From IMG/VR virus record IMGVR_UViG_2651869695_000003: a DNA stretch of 64,000 nucleotides; one strand, given 5' to 3'. Below are positions 606-45,756 of the stretch, piece by piece (position 1 is the stretch's first letter; the number at the start of each line of letters is the position of its first letter). The notes under the pieces were generated by a model. That model saw only the letters and a program-made list of their open reading frames with translations, had not been told where the DNA came from and ran no database searches. This DNA is from a virus (taxonomy: Duplodnaviria; Heunggongvirae; Uroviricota; Caudoviricetes). A program made the position numbers and the translations under genes.

Positions 606-974
606 TTGATGCGTGATATTCAGATGGTTCTGGAGCGTTGGGGAGCATGGGCGGCGAGTGATAGTTCTGGAGTAGACTATTCGCCTATAGCTGCTGGGTT
701 TAAGGGGCTTCTTCCCTACACAAGCAAAACACGTCAGGCTTGTTCAGATAGTGATGCATTAATTATTGAAGGTTGTCTTGCTCGTCTAAAGCAAAAAAAG
801 CCAGATGAGCACTCGCTGCTTGTGGCACATTATTTATACAGAATATCCAAGCGTAAGATTGCAAAGGTGCGTGGAAAGGATGAAAAATTGGTACGCATAG
901 AAATACAACTAGCCGAAGGATTTATTGATGGTTGCCTTTCAATGTTGGATTTTAACCTTGAAATGGACGCTTAG
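606..974 (+). CDS. Late-gene antitermination protein Q (QuuD-like)
   Basis: N-terminus MRDIQMVLERWGAWAA... and C-terminal ...EGxxDGxLxMLDxxLEMD match my recollection of E. coli prophage Q antiterminators; position upstream of lysis genes. Confidence 0.7.
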   Translation: MMRDIQMVLERWGAWAASDSSGVDYSPIAAGFKGLLPYTSKTRQACSDSDALIIEGCLARLKQKKPDEHSLLVAHYLYRISKRKIAKVRGKDEKLVRIEIQLAEGFIDGCLSMLDFNLEMDA

Positions 975-980
975 GGTTGC

Positions 981-1010
981 ACAGGTTGGCCCCATATGAG
1001 GCCAACCTGT
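981..1010. other. 11-bp-stem hairpin between convergent Q and cassette membrane gene (possible bidirectional terminator)
   Basis: ACAGGTTGGCC-N8-GGCCAACCTGT read directly; no clear T-run. Confidence 0.3.
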
Positions 1011-1471
1011 CACAAGTGGGGGAAGATTTTTCGTAACACTAACCAACACCTTCCGAAGGTATATAGCGAAATTATAAGGGAGGATAAGCCTAACAGTATG
1101 AACAGGAAATCAATAGGTTTGCCCGCAACAATAACATCATCAGGTAGAAACATCGCTATCAATGGAAATATACATGCGACGATGAGAGTTAACCCTGTTG
1201 AAAGTAATCTATTTACCAGAGTTGGTAACACGTTGTTTTGCTTAAGGGCATTAATTGCTCCTTCCTTATCGCTGTTTGCACTACTAAATATAGATATTGC
1301 AGCCAGAACAAAACCAAACAGGATGCCTGATATAGTCGAGAGCACCCCCGCTGTTGTGAGTACGTCAGCATGCTTCATCGGTTTAAACAGTTTTGTCGCT
1401 GCATAGGTCAACAGAATCCAGAGGACGCATTTCCAGAGAAAAGTGGCTAATTCTCTCATTGTGTCCTCCAT
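1010..1471 (-). CDS. Four-TM small membrane protein (cassette gene 2), function unknown
   Basis: 153-aa ORF with four hydrophobic helices; AT-rich; directly downstream of 313-aa ORF on same strand, antisense to phage late operon. Confidence 0.55.
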   Translation of the reverse strand: MEDTMRELATFLWKCVLWILLTYAATKLFKPMKHADVLTTAGVLSTISGILFGFVLAAISIFSSANSDKEGAINALKQNNVLPTLVNRLLSTGLTLIVACIFPLIAMFLPDDVIVAGKPIDFLFILLGLSSLIISLYTFGRCWLVLRKIFPHL

Positions 1472-1480
1472 GCTTGGTTA

Positions 1481-2422
1481 TTAGTCTCTGCTAGCGAGCT
1501 CATACTGTGCAAGATAGTTCGCGTTATCAATTTTAGCAGATATCATCGCCGTTCTGATATCAGAATCGGATGGATAACCGCTTTTGACAATGATTGTCTT
1601 TGTACTGACCAATACTTGGTCAAGTAGACTTTTGGGCGTTCTATTGGATGGCTCTGTTACATCAATTTTTTTAATTTTTAGACCTCCAGAACCTTTTGGA
1701 AAAAGTTCAAGTAGTTCCTTAATAGCATCGGTGACAGAAGTTTTTAGATAGTTAAACCCTTGTTTTTTCGGGCGAATCCGACCTCGCATATTTAATCTTA
1801 GATGCGACCCGCCCATACCAACAACCATGTCAATAATTTCATTAGCTAAAGGGTTTTTAATCTTATAATTAGCTTTGTTAAAGTTTCTTGGAGCAGCAAC
1901 TATAAGATCGAAACTACGTAGGATATTTCCGTCCTCAAGCAGTTCCTTCATGCTCTCTTGTTTCCAAATGGCTTCAAAAGTGACGCTTTTTAAATCAGTT
2001 TTGTTATACAAAATGAATGCCAGATCATTTACTTTGGGCCCTATATGGTTGAGGGTCATAGCTAATAAGTCCGTTTCGTAGTAATAGATAAAATATGTTC
2101 TTTCAACTACAGAATCTTTATCATTTAAAGGAATTGTTCTCTCACTACCTGTAGCATCCTCGATGAACGGTAGTAGGCATTCCCTTCTCCACGATACGTA
2201 ACCAAAGTAACATTGCAGTGTGGTATCTTTTTGAAGAATAACTAACTTTAACCCTCGACTTGGGGTGTCTGTTGTGTAAGTTATTGGAAAAGTTACAGTA
2301 TCTGCTGTGGTCATTTGCTCAAAGGCTAGTTTTGCAGCAGATGTGCCATATTTTTTGCTTCCATTACCAGTGAAAAAACCAACTCTCACTCGCCTGGTTT
2401 TATTCTTATTTTCTGTACTCAT
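1481..2422 (-). CDS. Hypothetical 313-aa cytoplasmic protein (cassette gene 1), candidate defence/exclusion factor
   Basis: Long AT-rich ORF, no recognised motif by eye; located in Q-to-lysis moron hotspot. Confidence 0.55.
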   Translation of the reverse strand: MSTENKNKTRRVRVGFFTGNGSKKYGTSAAKLAFEQMTTADTVTFPITYTTDTPSRGLKLVILQKDTTLQCYFGYVSWRRECLLPFIEDATGSERTIPLNDKDSVVERTYFIYYYETDLLAMTLNHIGPKVNDLAFILYNKTDLKSVTFEAIWKQESMKELLEDGNILRSFDLIVAAPRNFNKANYKIKNPLANEIIDMVVGMGGSHLRLNMRGRIRPKKQGFNYLKTSVTDAIKELLELFPKGSGGLKIKKIDVTEPSNRTPKSLLDQVLVSTKTIIVKSGYPSDSDIRTAMISAKIDNANYLAQYELASRD

Positions 2423-2544
2423 TATCGATCCGAAATAATTTTAGCAACCGTGTGAAAAATACAACAAAAAAAAGAGGAAATCATTAGCGCGGTCCGCAAA
2501 AAACATTGTAATCTGTTAAGAGTGGTTACTTCGCCACACAGCTT

Positions 2545-2575
2545 AAACCCGCCGTCGAGCGGGTTTTGTCGTTTC
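2545..2575 (+). terminator. Rho-independent terminator (tR'-like) upstream of holin
   Basis: AAACCCGC-CGTCGA-GCGGGTTT hairpin followed by TGTCGTTTCT. Confidence 0.5.
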
Positions 2576-2718
2576 TGTGGCTGGGGATTCGTTGGTCCTG
2601 GCCTATTCCGCAGTTCTCCATCGGTTCGGCTTCTTTGATGTTTCCGCTTCTGATTTGCGGTACATGATGTTCCCTCAATTTGCACCTGCTGTATCAGCGA
2701 GGTGAGAGATAACTACAA

Positions 2719-3045
2719 ATGCCTCATAACCCAAATACCTGGCTGGAGTTGGTCCAGAGCTGGTGGCGTGGAGACACACCGCTGGGCGCAGTGATTATGT
2801 CGATCGTTATGGCTGGCTTGCGCATTGCCTATTTTGGCGGTGGTGGTGGCTGGAAACGAAAAACGCTCGAGATTTTGCTCTGTGGTGCTCTGACGCTGAC
2901 TTTTGCATCCGCTCTTGAGTATGTCGGATGGCCTAAATCTCTTTCTGTTGCCATTGGTGGCGGCGTTGGGCTGATCGGGGTCGATGCTATTCGTGGGGCT
3001 GCAATGAGAGTAATCGGTAATAAGTTTGGTGGCTCTAAGGAGTAA
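2719..3045 (+). CDS. Holin, lambda S-like
   Basis: 108 aa, hydrophobic helices, charged C-terminus, immediately upstream of endolysin; pattern resembles lambda S. Confidence 0.7.
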   Translation: MPHNPNTWLELVQSWWRGDTPLGAVIMSIVMAGLRIAYFGGGGGWKRKTLEILLCGALTLTFASALEYVGWPKSLSVAIGGGVGLIGVDAIRGAAMRVIGNKFGGSKE

Positions 3046-3988: not shown

Positions 3989-4069
3989 AATTGCTTTCGA
4001 TGTATGGATCTGGACATCTTTTTTTTCTACTATGCTGACTGAGAATTGAAACGTATATGGATATTCTAT

Positions 4070-4828
4070 ATGAAAAGAAAAAAATTAGAAGGTCCCGGGT
4101 GTGAATCATATGAAGGGTTAGATGTTGAATATTATATTGATTCCGAAACGGGGGAATTTAAAGCGGTTTATACATTCAATAATGAAATTGTAGATCGCAT
4201 AAAATTGAGTGGGCGTATTGCCGATAGAGCATCTTCACTGTCCCTAATTCATAGGGACTTAAAAAGTGCTAAAGAGTGGTACCAAATAGCTAATGAACTG
4301 GCAGGGAGAAACGAATTAAGGACAGATGGCAAGTTATACGGGAATATACTTGATCTAGATTTATCAAGTGAAATTAGAGCGTTATTTGTGGCAAGCCTAA
4401 CGTTTTATGGTAAAGCTTTCTCTGAAGCTAAAGGGAGAAAGTTAAAGATGGAGCGTGATTGGCTTGATTCTGAATATTTTGGGTTGCATGACTGTATTAT
4501 TAACTACAGGCATAATTTTGCAGCACATAGCGGCAACCAAGACTATGAGTCAGCAGAAACTTCATTGTTACTAATAAGGAAAAATGGGAAAACATTTTAT
4601 CAAGCAGTGACAGATAGAAAACAACTGAGCATGATTGGTGTCGAGGACGAGCATGTTGATATGATTAATTTATTTGAACATGCGATACAGGTTGTTGAGA
4701 AAAAATATAATGAAACATTAGAGAGAATTAGAACCTATGTCATGCAAAAGAGTTATTCTTTTTGGTGTTTAGCTGCCACAGGGAAAGATCCCGTCAATTT
4801 AGATAAGTTAAATAAGAAGAAAAAATAA
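4070..4828 (+). CDS. Hypothetical AT-rich moron protein between Rz and HNH
   Basis: 252-aa ORF from first ATG (ORF track starts at TTG 4046); low GC versus neighbours; no recognisable domain. Confidence 0.45.
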   Translation: MKRKKLEGPGCESYEGLDVEYYIDSETGEFKAVYTFNNEIVDRIKLSGRIADRASSLSLIHRDLKSAKEWYQIANELAGRNELRTDGKLYGNILDLDLSSEIRALFVASLTFYGKAFSEAKGRKLKMERDWLDSEYFGLHDCIINYRHNFAAHSGNQDYESAETSLLLIRKNGKTFYQAVTDRKQLSMIGVEDEHVDMINLFEHAIQVVEKKYNETLERIRTYVMQKSYSFWCLAATGKDPVNLDKLNKKKK

Positions 4829-22234: not shown

Positions 22235-23218
22235 ATGCATCGTATAGACACGAAAACCGCGCAGAAGGATAAGTTCGGCGCGGGTAAGAACGGTTTTACC
22301 CGTGGTAACCCCCAGACCGGCACACCTGCCACCGATCTTGATGATGACTACTTTGATATGTTGCAGGAAGAACTCTGCAGCGTGGTGGAGGCATCCGGTG
22401 CCAGCCTGGAGAAGGGGCGGCATGACCAGCTGCTTACCGCGCTTCGTGCGCTGCTGTTAAGCCGCAAGAATCCGTTTAGCGATATCAAATCGGATGGCAC
22501 GGTGAAAACGGCTCTCGAAAACCTTGGTTTGGGAGAAGCCAGATTCTCTGGTCGTTTGTTAAACACGAATATTTTTAAAAGCTCTGGAAAATATATCCCA
22601 ACACTAGGGACAAAAAAGATAAGGGTCATTGCCTCTGGTGGCGGTGGCGGCGGCGGTGGGGTTCCTGAAACAACAGAAAATCAGCAGGCAACAGCCGGAG
22701 CTGGATTGAGCGGTGCATTTATTGAAGCATTTTTCGAGGTTGATAATGATTTCGAAGTCAACGTTATTATCGGTGCTGCAGGTAAAGGGGGGGGAGCCGG
22801 AAGAAATTCAGGTAGTGAAGGTGGCACAACTTATTTCGGTTCCCTGATAACTGCACCGGGTGGTACAGGCGGTGGCGCGGGGGGAGCATCTGCAAACACA
22901 TCATATATTCAGGGTATTTCATGGGGTGCCAGTCCGACATCGTCCGGTACTGTACTAAGAGCATTTCGCTGTAGTGCAAAAACACCAGGAGCAATGGTTA
23001 TCTCTGTTAAAGCTGTTGCAGGTGGTACCGGGGGGGATACACCACTAGGTTCAGGCGGTATAGGTGGTGCAAGTTCTTCATCATTCAGCGGACGTGGTGG
23101 TGGTAAAGCTGAGGGCTTTGGTGCTGGCGGAGGCGGAGCCTGCGCACCTGCCGGAAGTGAGGCTCAATCGGGAGGTGACGGTGCCCCGGGAATAGTTATT
23201 GTTGAGGAGTATGCCTGA
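22235..23218 (+). CDS. Tail fibre protein, variant A (constant N-terminus 102 aa + Gly-rich variable C-terminus)
   Basis: First 102 aa identical to the fibre at 23869..24531; C-terminus rich in GGxGG repeats. Confidence 0.8.
22512..22537. other. Candidate Din-family invertase crossover site (left)
   Basis: CTCTCGAAAACC-TT-GGTTTGGGAGAA fits the hix/gix/cix-type pattern (TTnTCnnAAACC-NN-GGTTTnnGAnAA, from memory); lies at the constant/variable junction. Confidence 0.55.
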
Positions 23219-23481
23219 TGAGTAATTTTGCTCTGATTGAACATGGCGTGGTGAAAAATATTATTATCTGGGATGGAGAGGGTGATTTATTCTCTAACTG
23301 CGAAATTATAAATATTGATCATATAGATGCAGGCGTCGGTTGGTTCTATTCTGACGGAGAGTTTATAGCACCACCGGAACCGGAAATGACTGAATATGAT
23401 GTTGGTAATATCGACGCGGTGATGGAATCAGATACCAGCACCGCGCCGGACGTCATCTGGCCTGAACTGCCGGAGGCGTAG
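23218..23481 (+). CDS. Tail fibre assembly protein for variant A
   Basis: 87 aa; start overlaps fibre A stop (TGATG); C-terminus ...[12 protein letters not shown] resembles Tfa C-termini. Confidence 0.55.
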   Translation: MSNFALIEHGVVKNIIIWDGEGDLFSNCEIINIDHIDAGVGWFYSDGEFIAPPEPEMTEYDVGNIDAVMESDTSTAPDVIWPELPEA

Positions 23482-23872
23482 GCCATTCAATATCTGGCGC
23501 ACCGGAAGTATCGACCAGTTCCAGTGCGTCCAGGTAATCCAGCCACAAATTATATTGCGCCAGTTCCTCACCTTTCAGACGACCAATAGCGGCTTTACCA
23601 GGCCATTGCTTACTGTTCATGTATTCGTTGGCCTGTTCAATAAGTATACTTTTCATTCCCTCCGCTTCAGCTATTTCCTGTTCCTGTGTCTTCGCTGGAT
23701 ATTCAGTAAGTACAGGGTAGTTATCCGGATTATTGATAATAATTTTCCCCGTACTCTGACCATTCATAAGTTCATAATAAAGAGCATCTTCAATATCGAA
23801 AGCATCATCGGGAATATCGCTGTTATTTTCAGAGAAAAATCCCTGAACAGATGGGGACCATTTCATTTTCAT
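23453..23872 (-). CDS. Tail fibre assembly protein for variant B
   Basis: 139 aa; coupled to fibre B; C-terminus ...[15 protein letters not shown]; 3' end overlaps convergent tfa A by 29 nt. Confidence 0.7.
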
Positions 23873-24531
23873 AATTTCCCAATTCCTAAAATGTGGACAT
23901 CATCAGCCTTACGGGCATTCCAGGTGACAATTACATCGGTAGAGTGACGATTAACTGAGATTGCATATGCTTCGTTAGTCGAGCCAGAAACTTTTGTAGC
24001 AAACACAGCAAACAGGACACCAAATGACTGGGGCCATTTATAGCCTGACAGCTGATAATTACCATTATTCAGTGTTACAGCTTTGGCTGCTGCACTTGAT
24101 GGAATCGTCAGCCACTGAAGTATCAACCCTCCTGGCAAAAGTTGTTTTCCGTAATAATCCCTCACCCCACTAAATGAAGCCATGTCCGGTATCTGATTTT
24201 CCCCTGTTCCCACATTTCGTTTTGCCGCTTCTCCCAAACCAAGGTTTTCGAGAGCCGTTTTCACCGTGCCATCCGATTTGATATCGCTAAACGGATTCTT
24301 GCGGCTTAACAGCAGCGCACGAAGCGCGGTAAGCAGCTGGTCATGCCGCCCCTTCTCCAGGCTGGCACCGGATGCCTCCACCACGCTGCAGAGTTCTTCC
24401 TGCAACATATCAAAGTAGTCATCATCAAGATCGGTGGCAGGTGTGCCGGTCTGGGGGTTACCACGGGTAAAACCGTTCTTACCCGCGCCGAACTTATCCT
24501 TCTGCGCGGTTTTCGTGTCTATACGATGCAT
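23869..24531 (-). CDS. Tail fibre protein, variant B (same constant N-terminus, different C-terminal receptor-binding region)
   Basis: N-terminal 102 aa identical to variant A, then unrelated C-terminus. Confidence 0.8.
24229..24254. other. Candidate Din-family invertase crossover site (right, inverted)
   Basis: TTCTCCCAAACC-AA-GGTTTTCGAGAG, reverse complement of left site. Confidence 0.55.
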
Positions 24532-41937: not shown

Positions 41938-42696
41938 TTATTTTTTCTTCTTATTTAACTTATCTAAATTGACGGGATCTTTCCCTGTGGCAGCTAAACA
42001 CCAAAAAGAATAACTCTTTTGCATGACATAGGTTCTAATTCTCTCTAATGTTTCATTATATTTTTTCTCAACAACCTGTATCGCATGTTCAAATAAATTA
42101 ATCATATCAACATGCTCGTCCTCGACACCAATCATGCTCAGTTGTTTTCTATCTGTCACTGCTTGATAAAATGTTTTCCCATTTTTCCTTATTAGTAACA
42201 ATGAAGTTTCTGCTGACTCATAGTCTTGGTTGCCGCTATGTGCTGCAAAATTATGCCTGTAGTTAATAATACAGTCATGCAACCCAAAATATTCAGAATC
42301 AAGCCAATCACGCTCCATCTTTAACTTTCTCCCTTTAGCTTCAGAGAAAGCTTTACCATAAAACGTTAGGCTTGCCACAAATAACGCTCTAATTTCACTT
42401 GATAAATCTAGATCAAGTATATTCCCGTATAACTTGCCATCTGTCCTTAATTCGTTTCTCCCTGCCAGTTCATTAGCTATTTGGTACCACTCTTTAGCAC
42501 TTTTTAAGTCCCTATGAATTAGGGACAGTGAAGATGCTCTATCGGCAATACGCCCACTCAATTTTATGCGATCTACAATTTCATTATTGAATGTATAAAC
42601 CGCTTTAAATTCCCCCGTTTCGGAATCAATATAATATTCAACATCTAACCCTTCATATGATTCACACCCGGGACCTTCTAATTTTTTTCTTTTCAT
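41938..42696 (-). CDS. Hypothetical AT-rich moron protein (copy 2)
   Basis: Identical inverted copy of 4070..4828. Confidence 0.45.
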   Translation of the reverse strand: MKRKKLEGPGCESYEGLDVEYYIDSETGEFKAVYTFNNEIVDRIKLSGRIADRASSLSLIHRDLKSAKEWYQIANELAGRNELRTDGKLYGNILDLDLSSEIRALFVASLTFYGKAFSEAKGRKLKMERDWLDSEYFGLHDCIINYRHNFAAHSGNQDYESAETSLLLIRKNGKTFYQAVTDRKQLSMIGVEDEHVDMINLFEHAIQVVEKKYNETLERIRTYVMQKSYSFWCLAATGKDPVNLDKLNKKKK

Positions 42697-42777
42697 ATAG
42701 AATATCCATATACGTTTCAATTCTCAGTCAGCATAGTAGAAAAAAAAGATGTCCAGATCCATACATCGAAAGCAATT

Positions 42778-44343: not shown

Positions 44344-45285
44344 ATGAGTACAGAAAATAAGAATAAAACCAGGCGAGTGAGAGTTGGTTTTTTCACTGGT
44401 AATGGAAGCAAAAAATATGGCACATCTGCTGCAAAACTAGCCTTTGAGCAAATGACCACAGCAGATACTGTAACTTTTCCAATAACTTACACAACAGACA
44501 CCCCAAGTCGAGGGTTAAAGTTAGTTATTCTTCAAAAAGATACCACACTGCAATGTTACTTTGGTTACGTATCGTGGAGAAGGGAATGCCTACTACCGTT
44601 CATCGAGGATGCTACAGGTAGTGAGAGAACAATTCCTTTAAATGATAAAGATTCTGTAGTTGAAAGAACATATTTTATCTATTACTACGAAACGGACTTA
44701 TTAGCTATGACCCTCAACCATATAGGGCCCAAAGTAAATGATCTGGCATTCATTTTGTATAACAAAACTGATTTAAAAAGCGTCACTTTTGAAGCCATTT
44801 GGAAACAAGAGAGCATGAAGGAACTGCTTGAGGACGGAAATATCCTACGTAGTTTCGATCTTATAGTTGCTGCTCCAAGAAACTTTAACAAAGCTAATTA
44901 TAAGATTAAAAACCCTTTAGCTAATGAAATTATTGACATGGTTGTTGGTATGGGCGGGTCGCATCTAAGATTAAATATGCGAGGTCGGATTCGCCCGAAA
45001 AAACAAGGGTTTAACTATCTAAAAACTTCTGTCACCGATGCTATTAAGGAACTACTTGAACTTTTTCCAAAAGGTTCTGGAGGTCTAAAAATTAAAAAAA
45101 TTGATGTAACAGAGCCATCCAATAGAACGCCCAAAAGTCTACTTGACCAAGTATTGGTCAGTACAAAGACAATCATTGTCAAAAGCGGTTATCCATCCGA
45201 TTCTGATATCAGAACGGCGATGATATCTGCTAAAATTGATAACGCGAACTATCTTGCACAGTATGAGCTCGCTAGCAGAGACTAA
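44344..45285 (+). CDS. Hypothetical 313-aa cassette protein (copy 2)
   Basis: Identical inverted copy of 1481..2422; here in context of the complete prophage. Confidence 0.55.
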   Translation: MSTENKNKTRRVRVGFFTGNGSKKYGTSAAKLAFEQMTTADTVTFPITYTTDTPSRGLKLVILQKDTTLQCYFGYVSWRRECLLPFIEDATGSERTIPLNDKDSVVERTYFIYYYETDLLAMTLNHIGPKVNDLAFILYNKTDLKSVTFEAIWKQESMKELLEDGNILRSFDLIVAAPRNFNKANYKIKNPLANEIIDMVVGMGGSHLRLNMRGRIRPKKQGFNYLKTSVTDAIKELLELFPKGSGGLKIKKIDVTEPSNRTPKSLLDQVLVSTKTIIVKSGYPSDSDIRTAMISAKIDNANYLAQYELASRD

Positions 45286-45294
45286 TAACCAAGC

Positions 45295-45756
45295 ATGGAG
45301 GACACAATGAGAGAATTAGCCACTTTTCTCTGGAAATGCGTCCTCTGGATTCTGTTGACCTATGCAGCGACAAAACTGTTTAAACCGATGAAGCATGCTG
45401 ACGTACTCACAACAGCGGGGGTGCTCTCGACTATATCAGGCATCCTGTTTGGTTTTGTTCTGGCTGCAATATCTATATTTAGTAGTGCAAACAGCGATAA
45501 GGAAGGAGCAATTAATGCCCTTAAGCAAAACAACGTGTTACCAACTCTGGTAAATAGATTACTTTCAACAGGGTTAACTCTCATCGTCGCATGTATATTT
45601 CCATTGATAGCGATGTTTCTACCTGATGATGTTATTGTTGCGGGCAAACCTATTGATTTCCTGTTCATACTGTTAGGCTTATCCTCCCTTATAATTTCGC
45701 TATATACCTTCGGAAGGTGTTGGTTAGTGTTACGAAAAATCTTCCCCCACTTGTGA
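45295..45756 (+). CDS. Four-TM membrane protein (cassette gene 2, copy 2)
   Basis: Identical inverted copy of 1010..1471. Confidence 0.55.
   Translation: MEDTMRELATFLWKCVLWILLTYAATKLFKPMKHADVLTTAGVLSTISGILFGFVLAAISIFSSANSDKEGAINALKQNNVLPTLVNRLLSTGLTLIVACIFPLIAMFLPDDVIVAGKPIDFLFILLGLSSLIISLYTFGRCWLVLRKIFPHL

Follow-up and report, generated by a model that had tools for sequence, protein, structure and literature searches.

A two-gene cassette antisense to Q and the holin gene

The 64,000-nucleotide (nt) stretch of DNA from the IMG/VR virus record IMGVR_UViG_2651869695_000003 (Caudoviricetes), called the window below, carries a prophage-borne cassette of two minus-strand genes between the antiterminator gene Q and the holin gene S. 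This cassette is examined here as a putative phage-exclusion module. We name the genes A (1481..2422) and B (1010..1459). A, taken from the list of open reading frames (ORFs), encodes a soluble, basic protein of 313 amino acids (aa) of the DUF6731 family, and B is predicted to encode an integral membrane protein of 149 aa with four long helices and a conserved central loop. Q (606..974, plus strand; PF06530, E=4e-51) is convergent with B and forms the left edge of the slot. The lambda-type holin gene S (2719..3045, plus strand; PF05106, E=6e-25) is the first late gene downstream of it. On the plus strand the cassette is thus neighboured by a DUF968/HNH gene and Q on one side, and by the holin gene, an endolysin-like ORF and an Rz-like ORF on the other, with an S24-type repressor gene at a distance of ~6 kb. 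The cassette is AT-rich (GC content 0.36-0.43 compared to 0.50-0.54 in the flanks). Both the antisense two-gene arrangement between Q and the holin gene and the low GC content had been described in an initial annotation of this DNA, and both hold with the ORFs and flanking families given here. The chance of an open run of 313 codons is ~3e-10 at 37% GC, where ~6.8% of random codons are stops.

The start of B needs a correction. The ORF 1010..1471 begins at an upstream ATG (1471, minus strand), which would yield a protein of 153 aa starting 9 nt after A, as initially annotated. However, this first ATG overlaps a GGAGG Shine-Dalgarno motif (1465..1469, minus strand; read from the sequence), which lies 5 nt upstream of the second ATG at 1459. 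Moreover, B homologues are mostly 145-149 aa long and the RefSeq annotation gives 149 aa. Hence the second ATG is most likely the start, so that B comprises 149 aa and the gap between A and B is 21 nt.

Upstream of A a cargo-specific region (2423..2467, minus strand) presumably holds the cassette promoter and a short leader. It contains a weak promoter candidate (TTGTTG-18 nt-TAAAAT) and is conserved within the group of allele 1 only, the alleles being different there.

Protein A is predicted to adopt the fold of lambda RexA

Protein A contains 45 K+R and 35 D+E residues (net +10). No Pfam, NCBIfam or PADLOC model matches the window protein above threshold, and PHROGs assigns A and B to phrog_7651 and phrog_8552, both of unknown function. 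The DUF6731 model PF20505 does not match the window protein itself at E≤0.1. It is matched by 26 of the 44 aligned members of the A family, among them the homologue P0035 (47% identical, E=8e-81) with 45.4 bits at a cut-off of 27, and RefSeq names allele 2 of A 'DUF6731 family protein'. By these sequence relations A is clearly homologous to DUF6731 proteins though it remains below the model threshold. The searched literature returned no mention of DUF6731, PF20505, the RefSeq protein ids or the PHROG ids.

An AlphaFold model of A was built from the 44-sequence alignment (pLDDT 83.1, pTM 0.82). Its secondary structure elements follow the published RexA topology: the N-terminal part has seven strands together with helices, the middle domain is of the beta-alpha type, and a strand and a helix form the C-terminal end. 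Such an arrangement agrees with the build of RexA and RdgC, in which a beta-alpha domain is inserted into a split globular domain. Foldseek against the PDB gave Escherichia coli RdgC as the sole notable match (E=1.2e-3, probability 0.99, whole-length, TM 0.34). In the model, A has the predicted fold of lambda RexA, with a split globular domain and an RdgC-like inserted domain, the putative dimerisation domain.

RdgC itself (PDB 2OWL), a recombination-associated protein of E. coli, has only the fold in common with A. We rejected A as an RdgC proper: A is always carried by a prophage and accompanied by a membrane partner, and is not a stand-alone chromosomal gene, and the Pfam RdgC family matches none of the 44 family members.

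The sole stretch that hhalign aligns between A (111-154) and RexA (93-139) is the most conserved motif in both families. It pairs D118, G128-P129 and D133-L134 of A with D99, G109-P110 and D114-L115 of RexA. The respective letters are FIYYYETDLL..NHIGPKVNDLAFIL..FEAIWK in A and FLFVEGDTIGFARTVFGPTTSDLTDFL..IEPLMR in RexA. We regard this motif alignment as suggestive, though short of significance.

Protein B is a predicted four-helix membrane protein

The AlphaFold model of B (pLDDT 78.7) consists of four helices (2-24, 30-60, 77-104 and 116-145) with a short helix in the central loop. Helices 2-4 reach KD19 hydropathy values above 2.0. Helix 1, the first of the four transmembrane helices predicted in the initial annotation, is weaker (1.54) yet long in the model. 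Across the family alignment helix 2 (AGVLST.SGILFGFVLAAISIFSS) and the central-loop motif G67..A71-L72-K73 are near-invariant. As modelled, B is a four-transmembrane partner in the size range of about 140-165 aa, encoded directly downstream of A and in the same orientation.

No Pfam, NCBIfam or PADLOC model, holin families included, matches B above threshold; below it, the sole matches are to DUF4064 and MusI. A weak match to a lipid phosphatase in the PDB sequence search (E=0.001) covers a transmembrane stretch, was treated as compositional and was discarded. An exhaustive representative search with B among 1.84 billion proteins showed the family to be small, with 55 matches at E≤1e-3, nearly all of 100-180 aa, and did not reach RexB-like proteins. 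The second-best fold match of B in BFVD is a protein of mycobacteriophage Sbash (165 aa, probability 0.98, E=0.039); it has the length of gp31, the membrane protein of the Rex-like system of this phage, and by its length may be that protein. Homology of B to RexB is unproven.

A and B are inherited as a unit and occur in several cargo slots

Relatives of A were found in 91 loci, and in 89 of them the next gene downstream, in the same orientation, is a relative of B. In one of the other two loci A is truncated; the other holds a remote pair with 23% identity, in which the partner of 147 aa can still be aligned to the B profile (hhalign E=1.4e-3). Identities to the window proteins are strongly correlated between A and B (r=0.99), indicating that both are inherited as a unit. 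At 90% identity the relatives form about 60 (A) and 82 (B) clusters. Compared to homologues of 75-84% identity dN/dS is 0.03-0.11 where computable, dS being saturated in half of the comparisons; A and B are under strong purifying selection.

Convergence with a Q of the window type is seen in 81 of the 91 loci. A is less than 50% identical while Q is more than 80% identical in 36 loci, indicating an exchange of cassette alleles within a conserved backbone. Allele 1 was found in 73 and allele 2 in 18 of 5,426 complete E. coli genomes, together 91. Phage cdtI has a 44.5%-identical pair (orf54/orf53) in its Q slot, and a scan of genome contigs returned 3 loci.

The pair is found in at least four different cargo slots across unrelated temperate viruses. 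In Proteus prophages it lies in the gap that separates the tape-measure gene from the tail chaperone; a P2-like prophage has it in the SopE moron region, where the SopE effector gene and genes for tail fibres are its neighbours; and in Xenorhabdus it lies within a P2-like tail region. The survey of homologous cassettes and their neighbourhoods that had been proposed initially hence yields a tightly linked pair with several cargo slots. A further location is the Vibrio phage 10N.286.54.F4_PE001 (PQ189356; locus L100, 1389-2896), a temperate element of Vibrio cyclitrophicus that is PM2-like (Vinavirales) and 14.6 kb long. Here a pair of 351 aa and 150 aa directly follows the integrase (hhalign E=6e-50 for A, E=3e-22 for B), indicating that the module has crossed between tailed and non-tailed virus lineages. 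The architecture is kept in this remote pair as well as in that of locus L008.

Two further observations concern individual relatives. In an IMG/VR prophage (L055, 8001-8630) the A relative (72% identity) covers residues 1-209 only and no B relative was detected; this cassette looks disrupted. In the Escherichia phages vB_EcoS-733R5 (ON470608.1) and vB_EcoS-716R3 (ON470622.1) the feature under the A match (44.8% identity) is annotated 'portal (connector) protein', which looks like a misannotation.

The cassette occupies a hotspot between Q and a putative late promoter

On the holin side the slot is bounded by a backbone segment (2468..2576, plus strand). It includes a terminator-like site, a hairpin at 2545-2566 with a T-run. 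In phage PhiR5_1 (Q 76% identical) a homologue of the part 2468-2567 directly follows the 3' end of Q, and the segment is also present upstream of S in Shigella phage SfII. From the sequence we infer a qut-like region with the Q-dependent late promoter pR' and a short leader ending in an intrinsic terminator. If this is correct, the cassette is located between the Q stop and pR' and is divergent from pR'. In Stx phages stx is located downstream of pR', inside the late transcript. The position of the cassette would then differ from that of stx, and the initial description of the locus as the stx slot would not apply.

We surveyed the slot in 80 related loci anchored on Q (L102-L181). In 63 of them Q is followed by a pR'-like core. 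Of these 63 loci, 13 have an empty slot with 55-60 nt from the Q stop to the core, and the other 50 have 0.85-1.7 kb there; each of the 50 filled slots has its longest ORFs antisense to Q. Alternative inserts that were scanned include a KAP NTPase (PADLOC PDC-S20, E=1e-177), a TIR protein (PADLOC TIR-TM, E=2e-57), an HNH protein similar to PDC-M68A and CBASS-type endonuclease effectors (E=7e-27), and a match to PDC-S42 (E=4e-32) with a 140-aa partner. SfII carries PDC-M53A/B in its slot. The slot is a cargo hotspot that holds mostly candidate defence genes, and this content supports an anti-phage role of A and B by association only.

The holin-side junction also contains a palindromic element GCGGACCGC/GCGGTCCGC at 2490-2500 (GCGGTCCGC on the plus strand). 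It is near-invariant in every aligned cassette allele, one allele lacking a base, and the DNA between the element and the start of A varies. The element may be part of the late promoter or Q-binding region, or a recombination boundary of the slot.

A putative RexAB-type exclusion module

We consider the cassette to be, with fair probability, a two-component phage-exclusion (abortive infection) module of the RexAB type, carried as prophage cargo. According to this model the pair would be expressed in the lysogen from its own promoter. A would be a cytoplasmic dimer, probably able to bind DNA, and would sense a superinfecting phage by one of its components or by an intermediate of its replication or recombination. 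Triggered A might then engage the conserved cytoplasmic loop of B, whereupon B would oligomerise to a channel or damage the membrane otherwise. The membrane damage would lead to depolarisation, loss of ATP and growth arrest, and thereby abort the infection. Lambda RexAB, Sbash gp30/31, CarolAnn gp44/43 and Pseudomonas putida RexABpp served as analogues for this mechanism. A sensor paired with a membrane effector, as proposed initially, is supported by predicted structure and by context. Context likewise favours the initial reading as independently expressed lysogen cargo with a defence role, since PADLOC-recognised candidate defence genes occupy the same slot in sister phages.

Several results weigh against this interpretation. 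Sequence similarity of A and B to RexA and RexB is absent or sub-significant, in agreement with the initial annotation, in which no similarity was visible by eye. The RexA model PF15969 does not match the window A at E≤0.1, nor any of the 44 family members at E≤10, and a PDB sequence/profile search with A was empty. Hhalign of A against RexA, as a single sequence or as a four-sequence profile, remains sub-significant (E=0.04-0.07, probability 0.8-1.3%). B has no match to the Pfam RexB model PF15968 and no significant hhalign relation to RexB with either the single sequence or the four-sequence profile (probability about 1%). The fold comparison, likewise suggested at the outset, gave the RexA-like fold with RdgC on top for A, and for B it retrieved the Sbash protein but not RexB: BFVD returned nothing at E≤1e-3 and lambda RexB was outside the top 50. 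Moreover, small helical bundles match promiscuously in fold searches. None of the PADLOC-DB 2.0 models matches A or B at E≤1, and a consensus scan found no sigma-70 site upstream of A. The hotspot context is guilt by association only. Most PADLOC matches there (PDC models) are themselves candidates, and of the scanned inserts an SDH-type ClpP-like protease has no PADLOC match and a 339-aa protein has no match at all. Unlike rexAB in lambda, the cassette is not located beside the repressor gene. For RexA a role apart from defence, in the lambda switch, is described as well (PMC11077077), and in phage Butters the roles of both proteins are reversed (PMC12894663). Because of this reversal the direction of signalling between A and B should not be assumed.

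Adjacency to the repressor is not universal, since the Rex-like systems of Sbash and Butters are displaced from it as well (PMC11077077). Our best guess is to group A and B with the Rex systems and not to set them up as a separate kind, because the published Rex-like systems are already as divergent; Sbash gp30/31 had no Pfam family in our scan.

Alternative explanations

Two alternatives retain an anti-phage function. The pair might exclude superinfecting phages without abortion, with B marking or blocking the site of DNA entry and A capturing the incoming DNA in a Kiwa-like or Sie-like manner, neither depolarisation nor growth arrest being involved. The predicted combination of a membrane protein with a DNA-binding fold, the net positive charge of A and the prophage cargo context are all compatible with this. 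Yet A and B have no match in PADLOC, whose models would cover KwaA, KwaB or Sie-type proteins, the structure closest to A is RexA and no solved Kiwa chain, the gene order of Kiwa is opposite to that of A and B, and a link between KwaB and RdgC was not found in the searched literature. We regard such an exclusion as rather unlikely. Alternatively, A could be the toxic or antiviral effector and B a mere membrane anchor that sequesters A until infection. In Butters it is the RexA-like gp30 that acts as effector, and defence works without the membrane protein gp31 (PMC12894663), and A is larger and more information-rich than B. This arrangement is nevertheless improbable: B is conserved as much as A with similarly low dN/dS, and the membrane protein is the effector in three of the four other described systems (PMC12894663).

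Both remaining alternatives relate the pair to the phage's own development, and both are opposed by the wide range of slots and by the dispensability of the insert between Q and pR'. A might bind DNA near Q/pR' and tune the commitment of its own prophage to lysis, with B as a modulator of A. Such a switch would parallel lambda RexA, which binds DNA without sequence specificity and, with no need of RexB, stabilises the lytic state (PMC11077077), and the pair lies beside Q and divergent from the inferred pR' in the 81 loci mentioned above. However, it is also present at places with no Q nearby: in slots among tail genes, beside SopE and at the integrase of the PM2-like element. Otherwise similar phages have an empty slot or unrelated defence-type genes in it, so that late control of the phage does not need the pair, and the retention of B in nearly all loci is a further argument against it. 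A modulator of late genes is thus doubtful at best. Least probable by far is a role in lysis or addiction, with B as a holin- or antiholin-like protein or the pair as a toxin-antitoxin system that stabilises the prophage. Holin, endolysin and spanin genes are indeed close by, and B is a small membrane protein with several helices. But the cassette runs opposite to these genes and lies upstream of the putative late promoter, a canonical holin gene is already present (2719-3045), B has no Pfam match above the curated cut-off even among holin families, and the tail, SopE and integrase-adjacent slots do not fit such a role. A RexAB-type module remains our preferred reading.

Comparison with known Rex-like systems

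Five Rex-like systems have been described so far (PMC12894663). In lambda (RexA/RexB, PF15969/PF15968; RexA structure 8TWQ) the genes are in the immunity region adjoining cI, in contrast to A and B, which are antisense between Q and the inferred pR' and presumably have their own promoter; A is 34 residues longer than RexA. To our knowledge, the trigger and mechanism of lambda RexAB are still unclear after 70 years.

RexABpp of the P. putida prophage P1 (PP_5643/PP_5644; PMC12894663) is located downstream of a CI-like repressor gene, unlike A and B, and differs in host and sequence family. Its RexA-like protein binds DNA, and overexpression causes growth arrest and membrane permeabilisation in dependence on the membrane partner (PMC12894663). 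Closer in layout are gp30/gp31 of Sbash and gp44/gp43 of Gordonia phage CarolAnn (PMC6426596), which, as proposed for A and B, combine a soluble sensor with a four-helix membrane partner. The Sbash pair is also away from the repressor, just after the lysis cassette. A conserved central loop is common to B and Sbash gp31, and mutants in the central loop of gp31 lose defence (PMC6426596). On the other hand, Sbash gp30 comprises 372 aa, the hosts of Sbash and CarolAnn are actinobacterial, and hhalign of A and B against Sbash gp30/gp31 found no sequence relation.

In the sister phage SfII, PDC-M53 (genes 50 and 49; locus L019, 834-2448) occupies the same antisense slot between Q and pR'. Its layout resembles that of A and B, with PDC-M53A (340 aa) followed by PDC-M53B (194 aa), which has several hydrophobic segments. 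No sequence relation of A and B to SfII gp50/gp49 was found by hhalign. PDC-M53 is itself a candidate system only, and it is likened to A and B by layout and slot.

The A-B pair is absent from PADLOC-DB 2.0 and was not found in the searched literature; the DefensePredictor paper says nothing on Rex-like systems. If our reading is correct, the cassette would add a sequence-unrelated member to the Rex type that is native to E. coli and hence open to standard coliphage panels and genetics. Moreover, it offers a hypothesis on the structure and function of DUF6731 proteins and of two functionally unassigned PHROG families. Further defence genes could be sought in the antisense slot that separates Q from the putative late promoter, as two of the scanned inserts have no PADLOC match.

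A palindrome in the window and further features

The window contains a 22.5-kb perfect palindrome, as the arms 1-22539 and 24227-46765 are 100% reverse-complementary. The exact reverse complement of 1010-2422 is therefore found at 44344..45756 on the plus strand (x becomes 46766-x). What was initially taken for a second copy of the cassette in the contiguous prophage context is the same locus on the mirror arm. The palindrome turns at 22540-24226 (1.7 kb), in the tail-fibre/tail-fibre-assembly region with stfP and ymfQ as neighbours; tail-fibre regions of this kind are invertible. No complete E. coli genome spans at least 80% of the turn, each matching one arm and the centre. A fold-back in the assembly is hence the likeliest explanation. 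With this explanation the true prophage context is a single arm running on to 64000.

The 35-nt spacer between the convergent stops of Q (974) and B (1010) harbours a stem-loop at 982..1009 with a 10-bp core stem (CAGGTTGGCC/GGCCAACCTG). Its predicted energy is -27.1 kcal/mol (z=-6.1) on the strand of B and -21.4 kcal/mol (z=-4.1) on the strand of Q. A U-tract is not present at this stem-loop.

A further AT-rich ORF (GC ~0.33-0.38) of 260 aa is located at 4046-4828 on the plus strand (mirror 41938-42720, minus strand), between the Rz gene and the HNH/terminase genes and on the same strand as the late genes. It has no Pfam or PADLOC match, is assigned to phrog_8440 (function unknown) and is annotated in RefSeq as a 252-aa hypothetical protein. 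It may represent another cargo gene.

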